A stretch of 14,620 bases of DNA from Nitrosopumilaceae archaeon (lineage in GTDB: Archaea; Thermoproteota; Nitrososphaeria; Nitrososphaerales; Nitrosopumilaceae): contig JBQTHX010000051.1 of assembly GCA_052389415.1 (NCBI GenBank), forward strand, positions 1-14,620, in the 5' to 3' direction. The notes beneath the pieces were generated by a model, which was given only the letters and a program-made list of their open reading frames with translations, searched no databases and had not been told where the DNA came from. The position numbers were made by a program, and so were the translations under genes. Below, in pieces: positions 1 to 11,759 of the stretch; position 1 is the first letter of the stretch; the number at the start of each line of letters is the position of its first letter.

Positions 1-124
1 CAACTGATTCTACCTCAGATTCGACAACTGATACAGCTACAACTGATTCTACCTCAGATTCGACAACTGATACAGCTACAACTGATTCTACCTCAGATTC
101 GACAACTGATACAGCTACAACTGA
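1..124 (+). repeat. Perfect 39-bp coding tandem repeat, 3 full copies plus partial (13-aa unit TDSTSDSTTDTAT); may extend upstream of the window
   Basis: caactgattctacctcagattcgacaactgatacagcta at 1-39, 40-78 and 79-117, followed by caactga. Confidence 0.95.
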
Positions 125-3100
125 ACCTATCCAAGAAGAATCAAATTCAGCTGACACAAGCTCGACTGATACTTCCTCAGATGTAACAACAGATACTTCG
201 AATACAAATTCTGAAACAAGTGACACTAGTTCTAATGAATTACCAACGTCTGATTCTACTTATTCAGACTTAACAGAGACAACTGCACCAGCAGACACCA
301 CGACTGATTCAAGTCAAGATGGTTCTACAACAAGTGATTCTGCACCTGCTGAAACTACAACTGATTCAAGCACAACGGACACTGCATCACCAGAATCTAA
401 TTCCACTGATACAACATCAGACTCGAACTCAACTGATACGACAACAGAAACTACAGAGTCAACAGATGCATCATCTGAAACTAGCGAATCAACTGATACC
501 ACAACTGAACCAGCAGCTTCAGAACAAGCTTCAGAAACAGCAGCTTCAGAAACAGCAGCTTCAGAAACAGCACCAGAGCCTGAAACCGTTGATACAGCAG
601 CTTCGACCAATTCTACTTCACTAGATTCTACTGTTACATTAGAACATGATTCCATTGAGATTGGCAATCCAGTTACCTGGGTTCAAACTGTAACATTATC
701 TGATGAAACAGAGAGTGTTCGAGTCGAGCTTCCTGCTGACGCAGAAATTATTGCAGTCTCTACATCTGATGGACAAGCCATTTCCTCAACAGATATAGTT
801 GAAGAGGCACCACAGACAGTTACTAGTGATTCTGCTCCTGTTATTTCATTAAATGATGTTTCTGAAACCTTGCAGGAAGATGCTGATACTAAACTTGTTG
901 CAATTGACGAACCTGCAACCGGATATGACATCGCATTTGAGACTCCTGCTCCATATACAATAGAAGAGGATCATTCCACTCCAGATCTATACCAAAAAGA
1001 TGTTACCGTAACTCATGATTCCGCTCTACACTATACTGATGTCAGATCATATTCTAGTCTCCCAGAAGATTTGGTTTCACAAGGTGTAGAGTTTAAACTA
1101 TACGGGATGGTTGATGGTGTCAAGACTGATGTAACAACTGATCCTAGATTTGCAGTCGCTTTTGTTGATACTGATGGAAATGGAATTGTTGATCAGATGC
1201 AGTGGACTGTACCACAGTTATCAGAGCAACAGTTTGTTATTGAAGCTCAAATCACAATTCTTAATGTTCAATCATATCCAGTAGTAGGTGGAGAATGGAT
1301 TGTTAGATTTACAACTGTAGGTACTGCGGATCTTACTATTACAGCTATCAACGACACAACATTTGGAGAAACAGCTCCGGATGATCTAAAATTCTTAGAG
1401 TTAAACGATGGCACGCAGACACTTATACCAGAGATATCTGGAAATTCTATAATTTATCAAAACTATTCTAGTGATGCTGAAGGCTTTGAGAGGTCCCTTG
1501 TTCTAACCGAGGGAATACATGATTTAGAATTTAAATTTGGAAATGTTGTACAATTTGCACACAATCATGCTACAGGTAATCCGCCAGCGGCGCCTTCACT
1601 TGACCTTCTAACAGTTTTATCATCATCATCGATCAAATTAGATTGGAGCAGCGGTTCAATAGAGGATGGAGGTCATAATGTTCAAGTTTTTCGCTGTTCA
1701 CCACCTCCATCCTGTACTCTCGGATTAATAGCTACTACAGCCAATAACGCAGTTACTTTTACTGATACCGGCCTTTCTGCTAGCACAGCTTATCTGTACG
1801 CCATTAAAGAAAGGCATGGGGCAAGTAATGTTAGTCCTTTTTCTAATTCCTTGTCAGGAACAACATTAGGTGTTAGTACCTCAGCTGACCTTTCAATATC
1901 AAAATCAGATTTACTTGATCCAGTGGACGAAGGAGATGCCATAACATACACAATTGTAGTTACTAATGGTGGCCCAAGTACAGCAACTAGTCTTACTGTT
2001 ACAGATACGCTCCCTGCTGGAGTCGCATTTGTTAGTGCCACAGGTACAGGCTGGAGCTGTGGAGAATTAGGTGGTATAGTAACCTGTACAAGAGCATCTC
2101 TAGCTGTTGGTGTAGCACCTGATATTACAATTACAGTTACAGCTCCATCACAGGGAGCCTCTTTACTCAATAGTGTTTCAGTATCAAGTTCCACTACTGA
2201 TCCTACTCCTGGTAACAATTCCGATAGTGAAACTACCGCAGTTACAGGCGAAGCAGACGTTGAGGTTTCAAAAGCAGATGATATCGAGCCAGCTCTAGCA
2301 GGTATAGACACCATAATTTACACAGTTACAGTTACCAACAATGATGCTGATGATGACGCAACAAATGTTGTTGTCACAGATGTACTCCCAGCTGGAGTCA
2401 CATATGTCAGCGATACACCATCACAAGGATCATTTGCTTCTGGTACTGGCATATGGACAGTCGGTACATTAACACCGGGTCAAACTGAAACACTAGACAT
2501 TGAAGTTACTGTAGATGTTGCCACGCCAAGTGGTATAATCACAAACACCGCATCTGTAGTTTCAGACAATGATCAGACTGCCGGAAATGATTCAGATTCA
2601 GAAGACACTACTATCATAGGCGAAGCAGACGTTTCAGTAGACAAATCAGGATCCTCCTATGCTATTGTTGGCAACGATTTAGTTTACACCGTTTCAGTTA
2701 CAAACAATGATGCTGACGATGCAGCAACAAGTGTTGTTGTTACAGACGTTCTCCCAGCTGGGGTCACATATGTATCTCCAGCAGTTCCAGACATTTGTAC
2801 TGAAGGACCAGCAGGCACTCTGACATGTGACTTTGGTTCAGTAGCAGCTGGTGCAACTGAGAGTGTTGACATTACAGTAACCGTGGACGCAGATACTATA
2901 GCTGGTACAATAACAAACACAGCATCAGTTTCATCAACTAATGACCAGAACGGTACAAATGATTCAGACAGTGTATCTACTACCGTGTTACCGGCAGTCT
3001 TGATTACAAATGGAGCTGCATATCCTGGATTTGATAAATTAAGTGATGTTGCAGGACGTCAGTTCAATCATATACTCACTCATTATGATCAAACCTACTA

Positions 3101-3881
3101 CAAAGTAACTGCCACCAACCCAGGACAATTCTTTGGTTACTTCTTCTTTGTAGGTGAACCAGGATCAGAAATATCTGCGACCGAGTTAATTACAACCCTT
3201 CCATTCCCATTTGTTACACAAGGAGCTGAACCAATCAAAGTTTATGATACAGCTGCTCTAGTTGATGGCTCGATTCAGCTATCTGGTGATACGCCATTTA
3301 CAGTTTCAGGCACTGACACAACAACTCCAAGTGGTGCTCTTGCAGTAGAATTGGCAGATTATGATCCACAAGACTTTGGAGAAACAGTACCGCTTGAATT
3401 TACAGGTACAGTACCAAGTTCAGGATTATTTGCAATAAAGGTCAAACTAGATTGGGGACTCAAGGCAAGCTACTCCTATCTACCAGACATTCCAACTAAT
3501 GATGCTGTAGGACAAGCACCAAATACTCTAAGAATAGTTCACCTAGATGACTTTACATTCGTACTAACAGGTGATGTTTCTGGTTCTGAAACTATAGAAA
3601 ATAACAACATCTTCAAGAATGATCCAGGATTTGCAGGACTGGTTCTAAGCTCTTCTGACAACACTCCAGTTCCTAACGTAAAGATAGAGTTTTGGACCTC
3701 TGGTACTGGAGCAAAGAAACTTGGTGAAACCTTTACAGATGAGAATGGATACTATTCTTACTATTACAAGCACACAGGAAAGGCAACCACCTATATCGTG
3801 AAACTTCCAGACTATGGCCAGCAACAATCAGTGACACTAAAATCCAATCAATTTGCAATCTTGCAATTTTTTGTATCTTAA
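3..3881 (+). CDS. Very large surface protein, 5'-truncated (>1290 aa): Ser/Thr/Asp-rich stalk, beta-rich domains, FN3, three DUF11 Ig-like domains, C-terminal carboxypeptidase-regulatory-like domain
   Basis: The frame of ORF 870..3881 is open from position 3 (TDSTSDSTTDTAT...), so TTG 870 is internal. FN3-like segment at ~1581-1866 (PPAAP..IKLDWS..FTDTGLSASTAYLY). DUF11-like repeats start at ~1881, 2250 and 2622 (ADxxxxK..I/LxYTxxVTN..AT.xVTDxLPAGV). C-terminus reads GLVLSSSDNTPVPNVKIEF..TDENGYY. Confidence 0.9.
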   Translation, partial: TDSTSDSTTDTATTDSTSDSTTDTATTDSTSDSTTDTATTEPIQEESNSADTSSTDTSSDVTTDTSNTNSETSDTSSNELPTSDSTYSDLTETTAPADTTTDSSQDGSTTSDSAPAETTTDSSTTDTASPESNSTDTTSDSNSTDTTTETTESTDASSETSESTDTTTEPAASEQASETAASETAASETAPEPETVDTAASTNSTSLDSTVTLEHDSIEIGNPVTWVQTVTLSDETESVRVELPADAEIIAVSTSDGQAISSTDIVEEAPQTVTSDSAPVISLNDVSETLQEDADTKLVAIDEPATGYDIAFETPAPYTIEEDHSTPDLYQKDVTVTHDSALHYTDVRSYSSLPEDLVSQGVEFKLYGMVDGVKTDVTTDPRFAVAFVDTDGNGIVDQMQWTVPQLSEQQFVIEAQITILNVQSYPVVGGEWIVRFTTVGTADLTITAINDTTFGETAPDDLKFLELNDGTQTLIPEISGNSIIYQNYSSDAEGFERSLVLTEGIHDLEFKFGNVVQFAHNHATGNPPAAPSLDLLTVLSSSSIKLDWSSGSIEDGGHNVQVFRCSPPPSCTLGLIATTANNAVTFTDTGLSASTAYLYAIKERHGASNVSPFSNSLSGTTLGVSTSADLSISKSDLLDPVDEGDAITYTIVVTNGGPSTATSLTVTDTLPAGVAFVSATGTGWSCGELGGIVTCTRASLAVGVAPDITITVTAPSQGASLLNSVSVSSSTTDPTPGNNSDSETTAVTGEADVEVSKADDIEPALAGIDTIIYTVTVTNNDADDDATNVVVTDVLPAGVTYVSDTPSQGSFASGTGIWTVGTLTPGQTETLDIEVTVDVATPSGIITNTASVVSDNDQTAGNDSDSEDTTIIGEADVSVDKSGSSYAIVGNDLVYTVSVTNNDADDAATSVVVTDVLPAGVTYVSPAVPDICTEGPAGTLTCDFGSVAAGATESVDITVTVDADTIAGTITNTASVSSTNDQNGTNDSDSVSTTVLPAVLITNGAAYPGFDKLSDVAGRQFNHILTHYDQTYYKVTATNPGQFFGYFFFVGEPGSEISATELITTLPFPFVTQGAEPIKVYDTAALVDGSIQLSGDTPFTVSGTDTTTPSGALAVELADYDPQDFGETVPLEFTGTVPSSGLFAIKVKLDWGLKASYSYLPDIPTNDAVGQAPNTLRIVHLDDFTFVLTGDVSGSETIENNNIFKNDPGFAGLVLSSSDNTPVPNVKIEFWTSGTGAKKLGETFTDENGYYSYYYKHTGKATTYIVKLPDYGQQQSVTLKSNQFAILQFFVS
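528..572 (+). repeat. 15-bp coding tandem repeat x3 (ASETA)
   Basis: gcttcagaaacagca at 528, 543 and 558, preceded by a degenerate copy. Confidence 0.9.
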
Positions 3882-5876: not shown

Positions 5877-6875
5877 CTAGTATCTTATGGTTCCAAAAAT
5901 TTTGGTTCTTCCAAGGATTGCAACCATTCCTATTACAACTGCAATCACACCAATTACAGCAACAGGAAATTCCGGTATTACCTGAGTCCCAATAACGGAA
6001 AACTCGTGAGTACCAGCTGAGTACTCCAATTCTAGTGTTTCTCCTAGGTCATCAGTGGTAAATTCTTTAGTCTCTTGACCATCCACCATTACAACAAATG
6101 GCCCTTTGAGTACACTTCCTAGACCTAGACGAGTCTTGCCATATTCGTCTCCATCTGCCGTAAACGATATCTCCTTGTTTGCCTCGTCTAATCCAAATTT
6201 AGTAACTGAAGAAGAGCTCTGCACCATGACATCAACATTTTCTCCACTGACTGAAACTGGAATGGTTCTTGCTTCTAGTTTGATTGGCTCTGTAGGCATC
6301 GGTGTTTCAGGTGGACTCTCTATTCCTATTGCATTTGAAATGTTTAGAGTCTTTACAGAATCATCAAACTTGCCAACAGCTCCATCATACTCTGATTCAG
6401 GAGAGATAAACATTACAGATATCCAATGAGTTTCGGTTTGAGCTGAAATAATTTTTGACTTTGTAACGTTACCATCATCGTCAGTGCAGGATACTACAGT
6501 CTCAGTTCCAGCTGCACCGCTTACTGTTACTGATCTTGTTGATAGAGTATCACATAATGATTGTCCTTGTGACGGATCAGTTGGTGGCGAGTCTACTTTT
6601 GTTTTTTCACTCATCATCAGAGTCATGGCTTGACTTACCTCTCCTTGTGATTCCATTCCTCCAGGAGAGGCTGTAGCCATTGTTCCTTGTGGAGTCTCCA
6701 TTGCTATTCCTGACCAGCCATCCGGAAATGTTATTGTGACTCCCACATCGTCGTTAGAATATTCTCCACTTACTTCTTCCATCTGAGGAATCGCTGGCCC
6801 TCCATATTGCGCAAATGCGGCGTTTAATGAAAAGGACAAAATGATTACAGATAAAACCAAAAACCCAGATCGCAT
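5877..6875 (-). CDS. Secreted protein with PEF(G)-CTERM archaeal sorting tail; N-terminal PsbP/DcrB-like domain (tentative)
   Basis: Signal peptide ends in AAFA. C-terminus is IGTQVIPEFP + hydrophobic helix + basic GRTK tail. ATG 6875 is preferred over TTG 6884 because TATA (TTTTTATA, minus strand 6898-6905) sits about 23 nt upstream of it. Confidence 0.85.
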   Translation of the reverse strand: MRSGFLVLSVIILSFSLNAAFAQYGGPAIPQMEEVSGEYSNDDVGVTITFPDGWSGIAMETPQGTMATASPGGMESQGEVSQAMTLMMSEKTKVDSPPTDPSQGQSLCDTLSTRSVTVSGAAGTETVVSCTDDDGNVTKSKIISAQTETHWISVMFISPESEYDGAVGKFDDSVKTLNISNAIGIESPPETPMPTEPIKLEARTIPVSVSGENVDVMVQSSSSVTKFGLDEANKEISFTADGDEYGKTRLGLGSVLKGPFVVMVDGQETKEFTTDDLGETLELEYSAGTHEFSVIGTQVIPEFPVAVIGVIAVVIGMVAILGRTKIFGTIRY

Positions 6876-6954
6876 TACAAGCAAGAATAATTACTGGTAT
6901 AAAAATATGATCGAAGACAAAGTTAAGGAGGTATTGTACGAGTTCTGATTTGTC

Positions 6955-8466
6955 TTAAGCAATCTTTTGTACAACAATCATTGCTTTGTTGTGCTCTTTC
7001 TGTTTTAGATCACTCATTGACTTTACATCTTCTCTGTCAGATTTTCCAACGTTGCTTGGATACTTGAAGACCTTGTCAGTTTTTATCACTTGACTATCAA
7101 ATGATTTCTGTGGGAACTTGGAATCAGAAAATTCTTGCGCTCTGACTTTTTCTTCTGCTACCTTGTTCCAGAATCCATCATCATGTCTTTCTGATTTTCC
7201 AATGTGGCTTCCATAAACGACAGACTCGTCATTTACTTGAGCTGGATTTACGTCAAGGTTGCCAAAGGAATCGTATGTTAGCATGTTTCCATCTGCATCT
7301 ATTACAAACTGGTTCCATGCTGGATTCTTGTAGTATGGAATGACTGCTGCTGCTGTGATTGTTTCTTCAGATGTTAATGATTCTCCTTGAATTTCAAATG
7401 CTCCAAATATGATAGTGTTCTGGTGGTTTCTGTACTCGTCTTCTGCGTTAATTACTAGATCAGTTATTGGCATCGGTTTTTGTGGAGTAAAGACAAAGGT
7501 CAAGATCATCTCTGTTTCTGTGAATGTTCTGTGTACTTCGACATCTCCAAAGAATCCGTTTGGATCTGATACTGTTAGCTGTCCGCTTTCTTCTATATAC
7601 ATAAAGTAAGTATCTGCTTTTTGAATCTCCAGATAGTCAAAAAACATGTTTACTACAACTCGTTTGATTGAATCAATTCCGTTATTGTCATATACATTTA
7701 CTTGTAATCGTTGCTCTACTCCAGTGTTCATAATCTGTGTTGGTATGTCATTAGAGTATCCTGTTAATCTTCCACCAAAGTTGTTGGCTGGTGCTCCCTC
7801 CTCCACTGAAGAGAAGCTGATTCTGCTGGTTGCTGGAGGTGTGATATCAAATGATAGTCCGCCTCTTCTAATCAATTCTGAATTTACTTGTTGGGATGAT
7901 TCGTTAGATTCAGAGTTGTCTGCTACAAATGATTCCGCTTCTATGCTTTCATTGCTCTCTGATTCATTGATTGATTCTTCTTCAACTATGCATTCGCCAA
8001 TATAGTCTCCATGTTGTTCTAGGTGTGCTGGCACTGAACTGTCTGCAACATCGATGGTCACAGGGTTTTCTGGGTCACCTTGAGGAAAGTGGCATATTGT
8101 TGTCTTGTTTTCTTGATTGTTACTGTTGCCAGATTCTTCATTGCTTTGTGATACATTGCTCTCTGATTCAGATTGTTCATTAACTATGCATTCGCCTAGG
8201 TAATCTCCGTGTTGATCAAGATGCGTTTGAACTGAACTGTCTGCAACATCGATTGTTTGAGGATTTTCTGGGTTTCCAGGAGGATAGTGGCATATTGTTG
8301 TCTTGTTTTCTTCTTGGTTATTGGATTGGCCATTTCCGTTACCTGCAGCATAAGCGTCAGTGAATGCAGACGGGAGAACTATCGTTAGTGCGCCGGTAAC
8401 TAGCACTGTGGCTAGGACGATACTGAACAGGTTTGGAATTTGGTGATTTCCAATTTTGGTCTGCAT
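6955..8466 (-). CDS. Secreted protein with two Cys/His 'TTICH.P.G.P' modules, acidic linkers and a C-terminal beta-rich domain
   Basis: Signal peptide ends in DAYA. Two copies of KTTICHxPxGxPENPxTIDVADSSVxxHLxQHGDYxGEC. ESESN-rich linkers. No C-terminal TM segment. Confidence 0.85.
   Translation of the reverse strand: MQTKIGNHQIPNLFSIVLATVLVTGALTIVLPSAFTDAYAAGNGNGQSNNQEENKTTICHYPPGNPENPQTIDVADSSVQTHLDQHGDYLGECIVNEQSESESNVSQSNEESGNSNNQENKTTICHFPQGDPENPVTIDVADSSVPAHLEQHGDYIGECIVEEESINESESNESIEAESFVADNSESNESSQQVNSELIRRGGLSFDITPPATSRISFSSVEEGAPANNFGGRLTGYSNDIPTQIMNTGVEQRLQVNVYDNNGIDSIKRVVVNMFFDYLEIQKADTYFMYIEESGQLTVSDPNGFFGDVEVHRTFTETEMILTFVFTPQKPMPITDLVINAEDEYRNHQNTIIFGAFEIQGESLTSEETITAAAVIPYYKNPAWNQFVIDADGNMLTYDSFGNLDVNPAQVNDESVVYGSHIGKSERHDDGFWNKVAEEKVRAQEFSDSKFPQKSFDSQVIKTDKVFKYPSNVGKSDREDVKSMSDLKQKEHNKAMIVVQKIA
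7984..8311 (-). repeat. Internal ~130-bp direct duplication (198-nt offset) encoding the Cys/His module
   Basis: 7984-8113 and 8182-8311 share aactatgcattcgcc, actgaactgtctgcaacatcgat and agtggcatattgttgtcttgttttct. Confidence 0.9.
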
Positions 8467-8710: not shown

Positions 8711-9403
8711 TTGTATGATTCAATCATTTTAGATTTGAAAAAGCTTGGAAACAAGGAAAAGGCCAAGGTCATGTCTGGATTTTTCAAGACAGGCAAAGGT
8801 CAGTATGGGGAAGGAGACGAATTTCTTGGGATTACAGTACCAGAGCAAAGAAAGATTGCTAAAAAATATACAAAGACTAGTCTTGCTGATGTAAAAAAAT
8901 TGCTTGAAAACAGGATACATGAATGCAGGCTGGTTGCATTATTAATTTTGGTAGAAAAATTCAAAGGCGAATCACAAAGAAAAAAGATTGTAGACTTTTA
9001 TCTTGATAATGTCAGATATGTAAACAACTGGGACCTTGTAGACCTTTCTGCAGACAAGATTCTTGGTCAGTTTGTTTTAGACAAGGACACATCCATTCTA
9101 AAAAAATTCGCAGGATCAAAGAATTTGTGGGAAAGAAGAATAGCAATTGTTTCCACGTTTACATTCATCAAACAAAACAGATTTGATGAAACTCTGAAAA
9201 TATCAAAATTATTAATTTCTGACAAACAAGATCTTATCCACAAGGCAGTAGGGTGGATGTTACGCGAAGTTGGAAAAAGAAACAAAAAGACAGAAATCGA
9301 TTTTTTAAAACAATATTACACCAAGATGCCAAGAACCATGCTTCGATATTCTATAGAAAGATTTTCAGATTCTGAAAAGAAATTTTTTATGAAGATACAT
9401 TAG
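8711..9403 (+). CDS. alkD: DNA alkylation repair protein (AlkD-like HEAT-repeat DNA glycosylase family)
   Basis: Family motifs FFKTGKGQYGEGDEFLGITVP, NNWDLVD, WERRIAIVST, DLIHKAVGWMLREVGKR, MPRTMLRYSIE. Confidence 0.9.
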   Translation: MYDSIILDLKKLGNKEKAKVMSGFFKTGKGQYGEGDEFLGITVPEQRKIAKKYTKTSLADVKKLLENRIHECRLVALLILVEKFKGESQRKKIVDFYLDNVRYVNNWDLVDLSADKILGQFVLDKDTSILKKFAGSKNLWERRIAIVSTFTFIKQNRFDETLKISKLLISDKQDLIHKAVGWMLREVGKRNKKTEIDFLKQYYTKMPRTMLRYSIERFSDSEKKFFMKIH

Positions 9404-10128
9404 ACACGAATTATTCCCTTTTCCACAAGATACTGGATTCCTTTAACAAAATCATCATCAGTTATCAGTCCATCTGACCACCACATGGCATTGTTTTTTA
9501 CCCAGTCAGGAACCTTTGTCTCTGCTACTCCAGAGGCAGGGGGAGGAAGGTTTGGAATTCTCATAATTCCCTCCTTTATCATGTACTCTATACCGTTTGT
9601 AAAGTCAGATTCTCTAATGGCACCTTCTGCAAACCACTTGGCATTGTCTTTAATCCAGTCAGGAATGCTAGTAGCTGCCTCTTTGCCAACAGAAGTTACA
9701 TGCATCTGAATTGTCTCAACCGCGGGATCATTTTCAGAGTTTAGCGAAAGGTTTGTTATAAAAATGTCAGAAAAAGTAATCTTGGTCTCGCATTTGCCGT
9801 CCTGACATACTGCCAGACTTGCAGTCTTGATATGTTTTCCACTAACTGAACTCTCAAAAAGTACAGGAGAGGATTTGTCTATTTGCTTGTGTATTGTAAG
9901 TTTGTTATCTTCTCCTGATTCAAGTCTTACAGAACCAGATACAAAGTCTAGATCTGATTCATTGTACTGGACAGAATACAACTGAATCCATCCACTTTCT
10001 CCCAATATGGTAGACTCGCCATCAATCCCATCTAATTTCAAAAAATAGTCTACTTGGGCAGAATAGGAATTGGCCAAAAATGAAGAACTAAACAAAACTG
10101 AAACTAGAAAAAAAACTGTCTTTCTCAT
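9400..10128 (-). CDS. Secreted diverged Hcp/TssD-like domain fused to a duplicated thaumarchaeal IPxWIKxNAxW domain
   Basis: Signal peptide of ~24 aa (..NSYSA). Hcp motifs DYFLKLDGIDGES, KQIDKSSPVLF, SGKHIK, ITFSDIFIT. C-terminal IPDWIKDNAKWFAEGAI..F..GIEYMIKEGI and VPDWVKNNAMWWSDGLITDDDFVKGIQYLVEKGII. Stop codon overlaps the alkD stop. Confidence 0.85.
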   Translation of the reverse strand: MRKTVFFLVSVLFSSSFLANSYSAQVDYFLKLDGIDGESTILGESGWIQLYSVQYNESDLDFVSGSVRLESGEDNKLTIHKQIDKSSPVLFESSVSGKHIKTASLAVCQDGKCETKITFSDIFITNLSLNSENDPAVETIQMHVTSVGKEAATSIPDWIKDNAKWFAEGAIRESDFTNGIEYMIKEGIMRIPNLPPPASGVAETKVPDWVKNNAMWWSDGLITDDDFVKGIQYLVEKGIIRV

Positions 10129-10209
10129 TTATTCAACTACTTTTTGCTGTCTATTAAACAATAAGTTCAATTTTACGAAGAGCTTAATAACATCAAAAAA
10201 TAATTAATT
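10129..10209. promoter_or_regulatory. Back-to-back archaeal promoters for the two Hcp genes (probably leaderless transcripts)
   Basis: Plus strand: purine-rich cgaagag and cttaataa (10183-10190) about 20 nt before TTG 10210. Minus strand: tttaatag (10151-10158) about 23 nt before ATG 10128. Confidence 0.55.
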
Positions 10210-10761
10210 TTGTTGAAGAATCTCTGGCTTTTACCAATATTATTTGCAATCTTAATTACATCAAGCTTTTCTAACGCATTTGCAGCTTCAGATTATTTCC
10301 TAAAAATTGAAGGAGTTGAAGGAGAGTCCACTGATGACAAACACAAAGGCACTATCGAGATAGATTCTTTCTCTTGGGGCGTTTCAAATGCAGGTTCTAT
10401 GGCTAGTGGAGGCGGAGGTGGAGCTGGCAAGGCAACATTTCAGGATATGCACTTTACGATGAAAGTTGGTAAGGCTTCACCAAAATTAATGATGGCAGTT
10501 GCTACAGGTGAACACATAAAACAAGTCGACCTGATGTTACGCAAGGCTGGAAGCACACAAATGGATTACTATACAATCACTCTAAGTGATGTTTTGGTAA
10601 CATCCTACTCTACTTCGGGAGAATCGGGTCAAGTACCGACAGAACAAATATCGCTAAACTATGCAAAGATAGAGTTCCAGTACATTCCGATAAATCCAGA
10701 TGGTAGGGCCGGTGAGGCAGTAAAGGCTGGTTATGACGTTAAAGCAAACGTGAAAATATAG
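10210..10761 (+). CDS. hcp: Hcp/TssD family (type VI secretion tube) protein with an N-terminal Sec signal peptide
   Basis: Mature region resembles Hcp1 end to end: DYFLKIEGVEGES.D..H...I...SFSWGVS, GGGGGAGKATFQD, ASPKLMMA.ATGEHI, LRKAG..Y.ITLSDVLVTS, TEQISLNYAKIEFQY, GYDVKAN. It is preceded by the 25-aa MLKNLWLLPILFAILITSSFSNAFA. Confidence 0.93.
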   Translation: MLKNLWLLPILFAILITSSFSNAFAASDYFLKIEGVEGESTDDKHKGTIEIDSFSWGVSNAGSMASGGGGGAGKATFQDMHFTMKVGKASPKLMMAVATGEHIKQVDLMLRKAGSTQMDYYTITLSDVLVTSYSTSGESGQVPTEQISLNYAKIEFQYIPINPDGRAGEAVKAGYDVKANVKI

Positions 10762-10928: not shown

Positions 10929-11759
10929 ATGATGGGTTACAGAAAATTTTTTGTAATGATTTTTGTGATATCATTGTCAACAATTTCATTTTATCATATA
11001 TATGCACAAACTACTCCGCCAATTTTACTTGTATCAAAGTTTTATGATTCAAATGGCAACGGGCTATTTGATTCAGGAATAGACCAGCATATTACAAATT
11101 GGAAGATCTCAGTCAATGGGGAAATAAAAAATACTCAATATGTAACCTTCTCTACTCCTGGTACTGTAATAAAAGTAACGGAGCTTGATCCAGTTGAAAA
11201 AAATTGGATTGCAACAACACCAAAATCTGTCACCAACACAATGGTAACAGGTAGATTAACTCAAGTACAATTTGGTAACATGTGCATTGATGGTGGAAAT
11301 GGTGAAGCTGTAGGATTTTGGGCAAACCAAAACGGTCAAACAATTATCAACGATAACAACGAAGTTGATTCTGAGCTAACATTGTTACAAAATCTAAATC
11401 TAAAGGATGGTACGGGTGCAGACTTTGATCCTACATCATATGATGAGCTAAAGGATTGGTTACTTGGAGCAAACTCTGAAAATAGCCCATACATGTTATC
11501 AGCGCAACTTGCTGCTATGGTACTAAATGTAGAGTCTGGATTTGTATTGGGGAATTCATATCTTGAATCTGAAGAGCCAGGCCCTTCAGATTTTATCAAA
11601 ATAAATACCCTAATCGAAATGGCAAATAATTCATTGGCAGCTGGAGATCCAAAAGAGATCCAGGAGTCTCTAAAAAATGCATTAGAAGAGGGAAATAACG
11701 GAGGAAATTACATCCGACCTCCTCCCTGCCCCTTCACTTTTAAAAAGAATTCAAACTAA
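10929..11759 (+). CDS. Secreted hypothetical protein: SdrD-B/prealbumin-like N-terminal domain plus helical 'GFWxN...LSAQLAAxxLN' domain
   Basis: Signal peptide ends in IYA. KFYDSNGNGLFD Ca-loop-like motif, then VTE...W.ATTP and VQFGN. GFWAN and LSAQLAAMVLNV motifs. Two Cys. Confidence 0.8.
   Translation: MMGYRKFFVMIFVISLSTISFYHIYAQTTPPILLVSKFYDSNGNGLFDSGIDQHITNWKISVNGEIKNTQYVTFSTPGTVIKVTELDPVEKNWIATTPKSVTNTMVTGRLTQVQFGNMCIDGGNGEAVGFWANQNGQTIINDNNEVDSELTLLQNLNLKDGTGADFDPTSYDELKDWLLGANSENSPYMLSAQLAAMVLNVESGFVLGNSYLESEEPGPSDFIKINTLIEMANNSLAAGDPKEIQESLKNALEEGNNGGNYIRPPPCPFTFKKNSN

Follow-up and report, generated by a model that had tools for sequence, protein, structure and literature searches.

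Hcp (TssD), the inner-tube protein of a type VI secretion system (T6SS), is defined by its role inside that machine and is routinely used as a marker of an active T6SS. Here we analyze an Hcp-type protein, HcpA, encoded behind an export leader in a Nitrosopumilaceae archaeon, an ammonia oxidiser, on a stretch of 14,620 nucleotides (the window) that is the whole of contig JBQTHX010000051.1 (C51) of assembly GCA_052389415.1. The Sec export of HcpA is, from its sequence, well supported, and so is its independence from a T6SS and from contraction. HcpA and the Hcp1/TssD protein of P. aeruginosa (PA0085, 1Y12) are alike in family, length, GGGGGAGK loop and conserved helix region. However, HcpA has a 25-residue Sec-type leader, an archaeal host and no sheath, spike or baseplate genes in its genome; a Cys conserved among leaderless relatives is replaced in it, and 14 of 158 alignment columns are shifted in its clade.

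T6SS Hcp proteins with C-terminal extensions constitute the Hcp-ET type. Toxins fused to N-terminal HCP1 domains are mentioned by Zhang et al. 2012 (PMC3482391). The long Hcp proteins of archaea resemble the Hcp-ET type in joining an N-terminal Hcp domain to a functional C-terminal part and in adjoining a gene for a plain short Hcp. Yet, what extends the archaeal proteins is not a toxin but anchor repeats or Ig-like, HYR, TSP3, NHL or collagen-like parts, all of the proteins bear export leaders and there is no T6SS to fire them.

Two further comparisons are close. Some bacterial metagenome-assembled genomes (Akkermansiaceae, Limnocylindria, Thermodesulfobacteriota, Saprospiraceae and Patescibacteria) encode an Hcp1-type domain behind a hydrophobic leader, and TssC was found in none of the four such genomes searched, as in archaea. 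They differ from the archaeal proteins in leader sequence, in that no anchor-repeat partner was seen, and in their sporadic occurrence (4 of 78 bacterial loci). Because a few bacteria have it, the leader-bearing Hcp is not confined to archaea, a point that the original prediction had missed. In extracellular contractile injection systems (eCIS) and tailocins the tubes are T4_gp19-family proteins, which cell lysis sets free along with sheath and baseplate. Their likeness to HcpA is that tail-tube-fold proteins end up outside the cell; the sheath, gp25 and gp19 families, in contrast, are absent from the genome that encodes HcpA. A full-text literature search, evaluated at the level of titles and abstracts with supplements excluded, returned no description of a leader-bearing or thaumarchaeal Hcp, in line with the earlier statement that no functional description was known; papers combining 'hcp' with Nitrosopumilus mostly dealt with nitrogen cycling and, at the same level, held nothing on a T6SS Hcp.

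HcpA is an Hcp1-type protein behind a Sec-type leader

The features of HcpA are the following:
10210 to 10761, plus strand: HcpA gene, encoding a leader-bearing Hcp1-type protein of 183 amino acids; TTG start, stop codon included in the coordinates
10210 to 10284, plus strand: signal peptide, residues 1-25 (MLKNLWLLPILFAILITSSFSNAFA), with n, h and c regions, ending in AFA; predicted signal peptidase I site A25/A26
10285 to 10758, plus strand: mature Hcp domain (residues 26-183), which aligns with P. aeruginosa Hcp1 over its full length; predicted local distance difference test score (pLDDT) of 83-84 for the chain in complex runs
10408 to 10431, plus strand: GGGGGAGK loop, residues 67-74, with identical letters in 1y12

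Based on profile searches, HcpA matches the Pfam family T6SS_HCP (PF05638) with an E value of 2.7e-44 and 151 bits (cut-off 23.5), over residues 30-158 and all 129 positions of the profile, and the NCBIfam model TIGR03344 (TssD) with 70.3 bits (cut-off 58.9). Its best match in the Protein Data Bank by phmmer is 1y12, P. aeruginosa PA0085/Hcp1 (E 1.3e-39), where HcpA residues 22-182 align to chain residues 2-164 over 161 residues. Within the loop, G69, G73 and K74 are invariant and G67 and G71 nearly so in a 41-row alignment (A2). The earlier description of HcpA as a near-canonical Hcp1 with the GGGGGAGK loop, for which a search with the T6SS_HCP family had been suggested as a check, is correct because the full-profile Pfam match, the TIGR03344 and 1y12 matches and the identical loop all agree with it. 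By sequence and predicted fold HcpA is a member of the Hcp family, and the alignment to 1y12 together with the pLDDT values assigns to it the Hcp beta-barrel with one helix.

A database search returned 1622 homologues of HcpA at E<=0.001, and the best 120 of these were examined in detail. Among these 120, the closest (57-91% identity) share the leader type MSKIWLIPLVFTILIASSFGNAFA, and the closest one with a name is labelled 'Nitrosopumilaceae archaeon', product 'type VI secretion system tube protein Hcp', which bears out the archaeal host of Nitrosopumilaceae type. A second tier among the 120 is made up of leaderless proteins of 159-162 residues, at most 66% identical to HcpA, that start with MAAVDYFLK and come from Acidobacteriota, Planctomycetota and other bacteria. 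We compared 65 leaderless relatives with 37 archaeal-type rows. A Cys that is 100% conserved in the former is Val in HcpA and in 64% of the latter, and replacements also affect two Lys and one Gln with a conservation of 95-97% among the leaderless proteins; the clade-specific shifts mentioned above were counted between these two sets. The Cys replacement and the column shifts may be listed among the signs of an extracellular setting, as may the repeats and the Cys pair of HcpB and the adhesion-type domains of long archaeal Hcp fusions, described below.

Judgement of the leader relied on criteria applied by hand and on how far homologues share it, and cleavage was placed by the -3/-1 rule. It has a basic n-region (K3), a hydrophobic core with a Kyte-Doolittle maximum of 2.88 over 12 residues, and Ala at -3 and -1; neither a twin arginine nor a lipobox Cys was read in its sequence. 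This is the pattern of a Sec signal cut by signal peptidase I. With the predicted cut after A25 the mature protein would begin with A26-S-D-Y-F-L-K, a stretch that lines up with A2-V-D-M-F-I-K in Hcp1; since the mature end aligns with Hcp1 from residue 2 onward, the leader is a clean N-terminal addition. An in-frame TAA ends at 10203, upstream of the start, and ahead of codon 64 an ATG, GTG or TTG is present only in the form of two TTG codons, at 10210 and 10213. A start downstream of the leader, which the original prediction had named as a possible objection, is impossible because codon 64 already lies inside the Hcp domain, and the 25-residue n/h/c signal peptide ending in AFA that it had described holds on sequence, start codons and conservation. 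A T6SS tube protein has no signal peptide and polymerises in the cytoplasm; the leader of HcpA is obligatory.

By our leader rule 53 of the best 120 homologues carry a leader, and by a pattern rule the Nitrosopumilaceae-type leader is present in 37 rows, the HcpA query included. We also fetched and translated archaeal loci and searched them with a hidden Markov model of the HcpA alignment: 61 distinct archaeal Hcp open reading frames (ORFs) are complete at the N-terminus, and every one of them carries a hydrophobic leader ahead of the domain; three more are incomplete.

The hydrophobic N-terminus could instead be an uncleaved signal anchor that tethers HcpA, as a monomer or a ring, to the membrane's outer face. 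Some archaeal relatives (L158, L156) do have long leaders with no obvious cleavage motif. However, in HcpA and its closest relatives a short h-region leads into AFA or AYA and the conserved first strand comes immediately after, which is the cleaved Sec pattern, and an uncut leader would block the N-terminal strand that starts at residue 26-27. We consider this possibility decidedly unlikely.

No contractile machine accompanies HcpA

The window was said to hold no T6SS machine genes, and none of the ten window ORFs scanned against Pfam matched a T6SS gene family. Profile searches of the whole genome, the check proposed earlier for TssB/C, VgrG, PAAR, TssE, TssF and the eCIS families, likewise returned no TssC, VgrG/Phage_GPD, Phage_sheath_1, gp25, PAAR, TssB, TssF or T4_gp19 in a genome that is 94% complete; on the T6SS side they covered TssB, TssC, TssE/gp25, TssF, VgrG and PAAR and left out TssG, TssK, TssM, TssA and ClpV. 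In a set of five genomes, which includes this one, a closed single-contig genome and two that are 99% complete, each of TssC (PF05943), VgrG (PF05954), sheath (PF04984), gp25 (PF04965), PAAR (PF05488), TssB (PF05591) and TssF (PF05947) was found in 0 of 5. TssC was absent from all 401 genomes sampled from the family, closed Hcp carriers among them. Since the defining machine features were looked for and not found, namely the TssB/TssC sheath genes and the VgrG, PAAR and TssE/TssF genes of a T6SS, and PF04984, PF04965 and (in its own genome) PF06841 for eCIS and tailocins, HcpA is not part of either kind of machine.

A cryptic contractile system whose genes lie in an unassembled part of the genome, with HcpA as its tube and the leader as an annotation artefact, would fit a genome that is 94% complete and in 94 contigs. 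Against it stand the lack of an alternative start, the 401 family genomes without TssC, and the absence of the other core T6SS and phage families from the five genomes, and we give it only a minute chance.

The bacterial picture is different. TssC was found in 19 of 29 genomes that carry a leaderless Hcp of the HcpA subfamily, and in none of five genomes with a leader-bearing Hcp (four bacterial and one from a soil Nitrosopumilales archaeon). The ten leaderless-Hcp genomes without TssC belong to Actinomycetota, Chloroflexota, Thermomicrobiales and Dormibacterota (loci L020, L033, L040, L043, L063, L074, L081, L083, L088 and L095), so these orphan Hcps sit in monoderm-type phyla; at several of the ten loci the Hcp gene is followed by an Hcp fusion of 360-390 residues.

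As a separate observation, PF06841 (T4_gp19) was met in two other genomes, G013 and G015, only as a segment of long exported proteins (E 5e-12 and 2e-13; L014 at G013:C1:1123508-1126768, ORF 541-3261, and L013/L015 on G015:C6). These proteins are very long and leader-bearing, also have anchor-type repeats and are absent from the genome of the window. Their T4_gp19 segments are a second tail-tube-like piece in exported archaeal proteins.

HcpB, a divergently transcribed paralogue with anchor-type repeats

A second Hcp-type gene, HcpB, which the original prediction did not mention, is transcribed divergently from HcpA:
10129 to 10209, no strand: spacer of 81 bp between the divergent HcpB and HcpA starts, A+T-rich, presumed to hold both promoters
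9400 to 10128, minus strand: HcpB gene, 242 amino acids, encoding a leader, a diverged and C-terminally shortened Hcp domain and two anchor-type repeats; stop codon included in the coordinates
10060 to 10128, minus strand: HcpB leader, residues 1-23 (MRKTVFFLVSVLFSSSFLANSYS), conserved in 17 orthologues; Kyte-Doolittle maximum 2.12
9679 to 10059, minus strand: Hcp-like domain of HcpB, residues 24-150, from alignment A3 and an AlphaFold2 (AF2) model
9403 to 9678, minus strand: two repeats of about 40 residues, IPxWIKNNAKWWSxGxIxDxDFxxGIQYLIxxGII, each a helical hairpin

The predicted mature end of HcpB is AQVDYFLK. PF05638 matches its residues 29-143 above the cut-off (E 2.5e-18, 67.1 bits), and TIGR03344 scores 25.2 bits, below its cut-off. 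The AF2 model of HcpB (mean pLDDT 72.8) shows strands over residues 27-149 and a helix at 87-96, and its best Foldseek matches are Hcp crystal structures (E 3.5e-10, probability 1.00). Cys108 and Cys113 are invariant in the 17 orthologues of alignment A3 and look like a disulfide-type pair.

The repeat of HcpB was found at no fewer than 14 other places in the same genome, that is at least 14 (on contigs C11, C69, C88, C34 twice, C29, C37, C25, C77, C55 twice, C94, C40, C80 and C64). The other carriers are leader-bearing proteins in which it occupies the C-terminus or follows straight after the leader. For five of the nine carriers scanned Pfam gave matches at E<=0.001; two of the five are matrixin-like metalloproteases, one is a PstS-like binding protein, one a nuclease/NHL protein, and one gave a weak match of plastocyanin-like type. 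The AF2 model of the two-repeat module (pLDDT 86.2) has four helices forming two helical hairpins. No Pfam family matched the first repeat member at E<=0.01, SLH being found only at E 0.29 in 3 of 14 members; there was no sequence match in the Protein Data Bank, and among 46 Foldseek matches returned for the model none reached E<=0.001. The nearest Atlas clusters are 100% Archaea, mostly Nitrososphaerota, and the repeat profile matches 5710 cluster representatives at E<=0.001. We presume the repeats to be a module that retains exported proteins at the cell envelope. Apart from HcpB, the repeat looks like a large undescribed family of envelope-retention domains of Nitrososphaerota.

Gene pairs and fusions in the family

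Hcp was detected in 54 of the 401 family genomes at E<=0.001 and in 48 above the cut-off, in 12 of 27 genera; the six weakest matches are regarded as false because they contain TAG stops. In a phylum-wide sample, 8 of 401 genomes had Hcp: besides the genome of the window, five of 56 from its own family and two from outside it, the latter both with hydrophobic N-termini. By our count 26 of the 48 carriers have adjacent Hcp genes, the usual pattern being a short Hcp and, after it, a long one, and in nine genomes from three genera HcpA and HcpB are arranged divergently. What the loci have in common is the Hcp pair alone. The gene downstream of HcpA (10929-11759) and the other genes of the window were not found near Hcp in the other archaeal loci, except for the DNA-alkylation-repair gene in L009, and the idea of a conserved cargo gene beside HcpA was dropped, as neighbours are not kept between loci.

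Ten long archaeal Hcp fusions were scanned. In eight of them the part that follows the Hcp domain matched further Pfam families of adhesion type above their cut-offs, namely thrombospondin-3 repeats, HYR, bacterial Ig-like domains, a metal motif of the MopE type or NHL/YncE propellers, with a FIMAH match just below its cut-off. The remaining two (L104, L120) have anchor repeats, and none of the ten has a toxin domain. The leader-bearing Hcp is, by sequence comparison, a family-wide theme with many adhesion-domain fusions, which had escaped the original prediction.

The reverse order, in which a long linker separates the leader from an Hcp domain at the C-terminus, was observed in L102 (10925-11722, G010), L099 (5031-6068, G015), L155 (1198-2178, G178) and L121 (1027-1965, G054). 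The linkers of L102 and L099 are collagen-like (GPPGETG / GPQGPAG) and lie upstream of an Hcp domain of another subtype; the collagen part is expected to trimerise and the Hcp part to form hexamers.

A predicted HcpA-HcpB interface and a model for their function

A 1:1 complex of HcpA (residues 26-183) and HcpB (24-150) was predicted from our own alignments, which makes the calibration only rough. The interface score ipSAE was 0.78, and the best of three controls scored 0.00; the mark used was reached by 58 of 80 solved complexes and by 2 of 110 mismatched pairs. The runs agreed in at least 88% of contacts, with a partner pLDDT of at least 80. The predicted interface consists of strand 53-61 and residues 156-158 and 171-175 on the HcpA side, and of the helix region 83-97 and strand 123-136 on the HcpB side. 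A side-by-side contact of this type is what is expected within an Hcp ring. Ring formation by HcpA may be expected from homology and from this one predicted interface, which may reflect solved Hcp rings.

The explanation that we favour, and to which we give a slightly better than even chance, is that HcpA forms Sec-exported rings on which HcpB docks or is joined, that these are held at the envelope and that no contractile machine takes part. It would proceed as follows: 1) HcpA would be made with its 25-residue leader and passed through the Sec translocon, 2) without the participation of a contractile machine; 3) signal peptidase I would most likely cut after AFA25, giving the mature end of a cytoplasmic Hcp1; 4) HcpA would form rings outside the membrane, as other Hcps do; and 5) the divergently encoded HcpB would join or dock on the rings through the Hcp-type lateral interface, its two helical-hairpin repeats keeping the assembly on the cell envelope. 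At the level of sequence and genome the first two steps are shown, and we infer steps 3 to 5. In related genomes the long partner has Ig-like, HYR, thrombospondin-3, NHL-propeller or collagen-like parts instead of the repeats, and the cassette of a short Hcp and a long Hcp fusion therefore looks like a multivalent extracellular scaffold or adhesion hub. HcpA would work most like an exported structural subunit, and it may co-assemble with HcpB, be anchored through the repeats of the latter and serve in a scaffold or in adhesion. The original prediction of a tube protein re-routed through Sec and repurposed outside the T6SS is borne out as to export and independence, by the leader and the missing machine; its ring, conduit or nanotube has behind it homology and the one predicted interface.

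Several points weigh against this explanation. The complex prediction shows likeness or compatibility and not binding, because Hcp homo-hexamers have been solved and our own alignments were used, and the residues of the predicted interface are not enriched in conservation in the archaeal clade (0.79 vs 0.76). HcpB does not have the last strands of the Hcp fold, which may block normal ring closure. The function of the repeats is deduced from their carriers, as they match no fold or family. Export and assembly of HcpA are read from sequence, with a predicted cleavage site, and what HcpA and HcpB are for is a guess.

A different reading of the same data is that HcpA is exported and cleaved to act as a free soluble ring, a carrier or chaperone of small secreted proteins or a binder of something from neighbouring bacteria, and that HcpB is an independent paralogue. 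HcpA has no anchor of its own, the lumen of bacterial Hcp carries effectors, and the interface prediction may be a memory of homo-rings. However, the HcpA/HcpB pair, or a short and a long Hcp, is kept together in the 26 carriers noted above while neighbours change, and the archaeal loci compared show no small conserved cargo gene beside HcpA. We regard the free ring as unlikely.

The anchored assembly of HcpA and HcpB can be extended into a bolder proposal, which we offer tentatively and hold to be doubtful: a domesticated phage/T6SS tail-tube protein would build a new surface structure of Sec-exported Hcp rings, possibly stacked as short tubes, nucleated or held by an anchored Hcp paralogue and forming six-fold adhesion arrays in relatives, and it would have been acquired from bacteria more than once and each time kept only with an export signal. 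If true, it would be the first case in which the Hcp fold serves outside the cell independently of a contractile machine.

Origin of HcpA and its place in the host genome

A FastTree tree of 243 rows and an IQ-TREE quick tree of 74 rows chosen from these were computed; unnamed database rows were called archaeal from their leader type and matching loci. The trees are poorly resolved, with 14 of 71 inner branches starred in the 74-row tree. The starred branches force at least three separate placements of archaeal rows, and two archaeal groups sit with TssC-positive bacterial Hcps (96* and 95*). The clade of the window groups with the leader-bearing bacterial rows L077, P0060, P0087, P0106 and P0109, at a Shimodaira-Hasegawa-like approximate likelihood ratio (SH-aLRT) of 88-89, not starred. 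Several transfers from bacteria are likely on this evidence, and the trees leave their donor and number unproven. As part of the joint explanation favoured above, and with the same slight leaning, HcpA would be an Hcp1-type tail-tube protein of bacterial origin that Nitrosopumilaceae have kept only in a Sec-exported form.

The genome has 1,430,811 bases in 94 contigs, with a completeness of 94.1% and a contamination of 2.0%. In favour of bacterial contamination or a chimera, the contig is short and its genome was binned, and HcpA is up to 66% identical to leaderless relatives of 159-162 residues, some from named bacteria. Contamination is nevertheless very unlikely, because a single ORF, HcpB, unites an Hcp domain with a repeat of Nitrososphaerota type, the repeat recurring at the other places in the genome given above, and because homologues are found in the single-contig genomes G013 and G178. 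The GC content of HcpA (40.9%) is also close to that of the host (genome 36.3%, contigs 33-39%) and far from that of likely bacterial donors. The chimerism that had been raised as a possible objection is, on these grounds, the least probable of all the alternatives considered here.

Other genes of the window

Apart from the DNA alkylation repair gene at 8711-9403, the contig mostly encodes exported proteins. The others of note are:
3 to 3881, plus strand: very large open-ended surface protein with a low-complexity head rich in Thr, Asp and Ser, three DUF11 repeats (E 1.7e-68) and DUF7933
5877 to 6884, minus strand: leader-bearing protein ending in ...VIPEFPVAVIGVIAVVIGMVAILGR..., which we take to resemble the PEFG-CTERM sorting signal of Thaumarchaeota
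6955 to 8466, minus strand: leader-bearing protein with two copies of a motif of about 40 residues
11956 to 13905, plus strand: leader-bearing protein with one copy of the same motif

The motif common to the last two, TTICH(Y/F/I)P(P/Q)G(N/D)P.N..TI....(S/K).V.AHL..HGD..G.C, has no Pfam match and could be a metal- or disulfide-type module based on Cys and His.

Implications

Across this archaeal family, all complete Hcp genes examined carry an export signal, and a sheath is missing from every genome sampled. The automatic label 'T6SS tube protein' is misleading for these archaea and likewise for some bacteria, among them monoderm phyla in which Hcp occurs but TssC does not. The case of HcpA is of interest to specialists of the T6SS and of the archaeal cell envelope alike: the tail-tube fold can be re-used as an extracellular building block, and nitrifiers that abound in the sea and in soil possess an undescribed component of the envelope, with possible effects on their adhesion, their aggregation or their interactions with bacteria.

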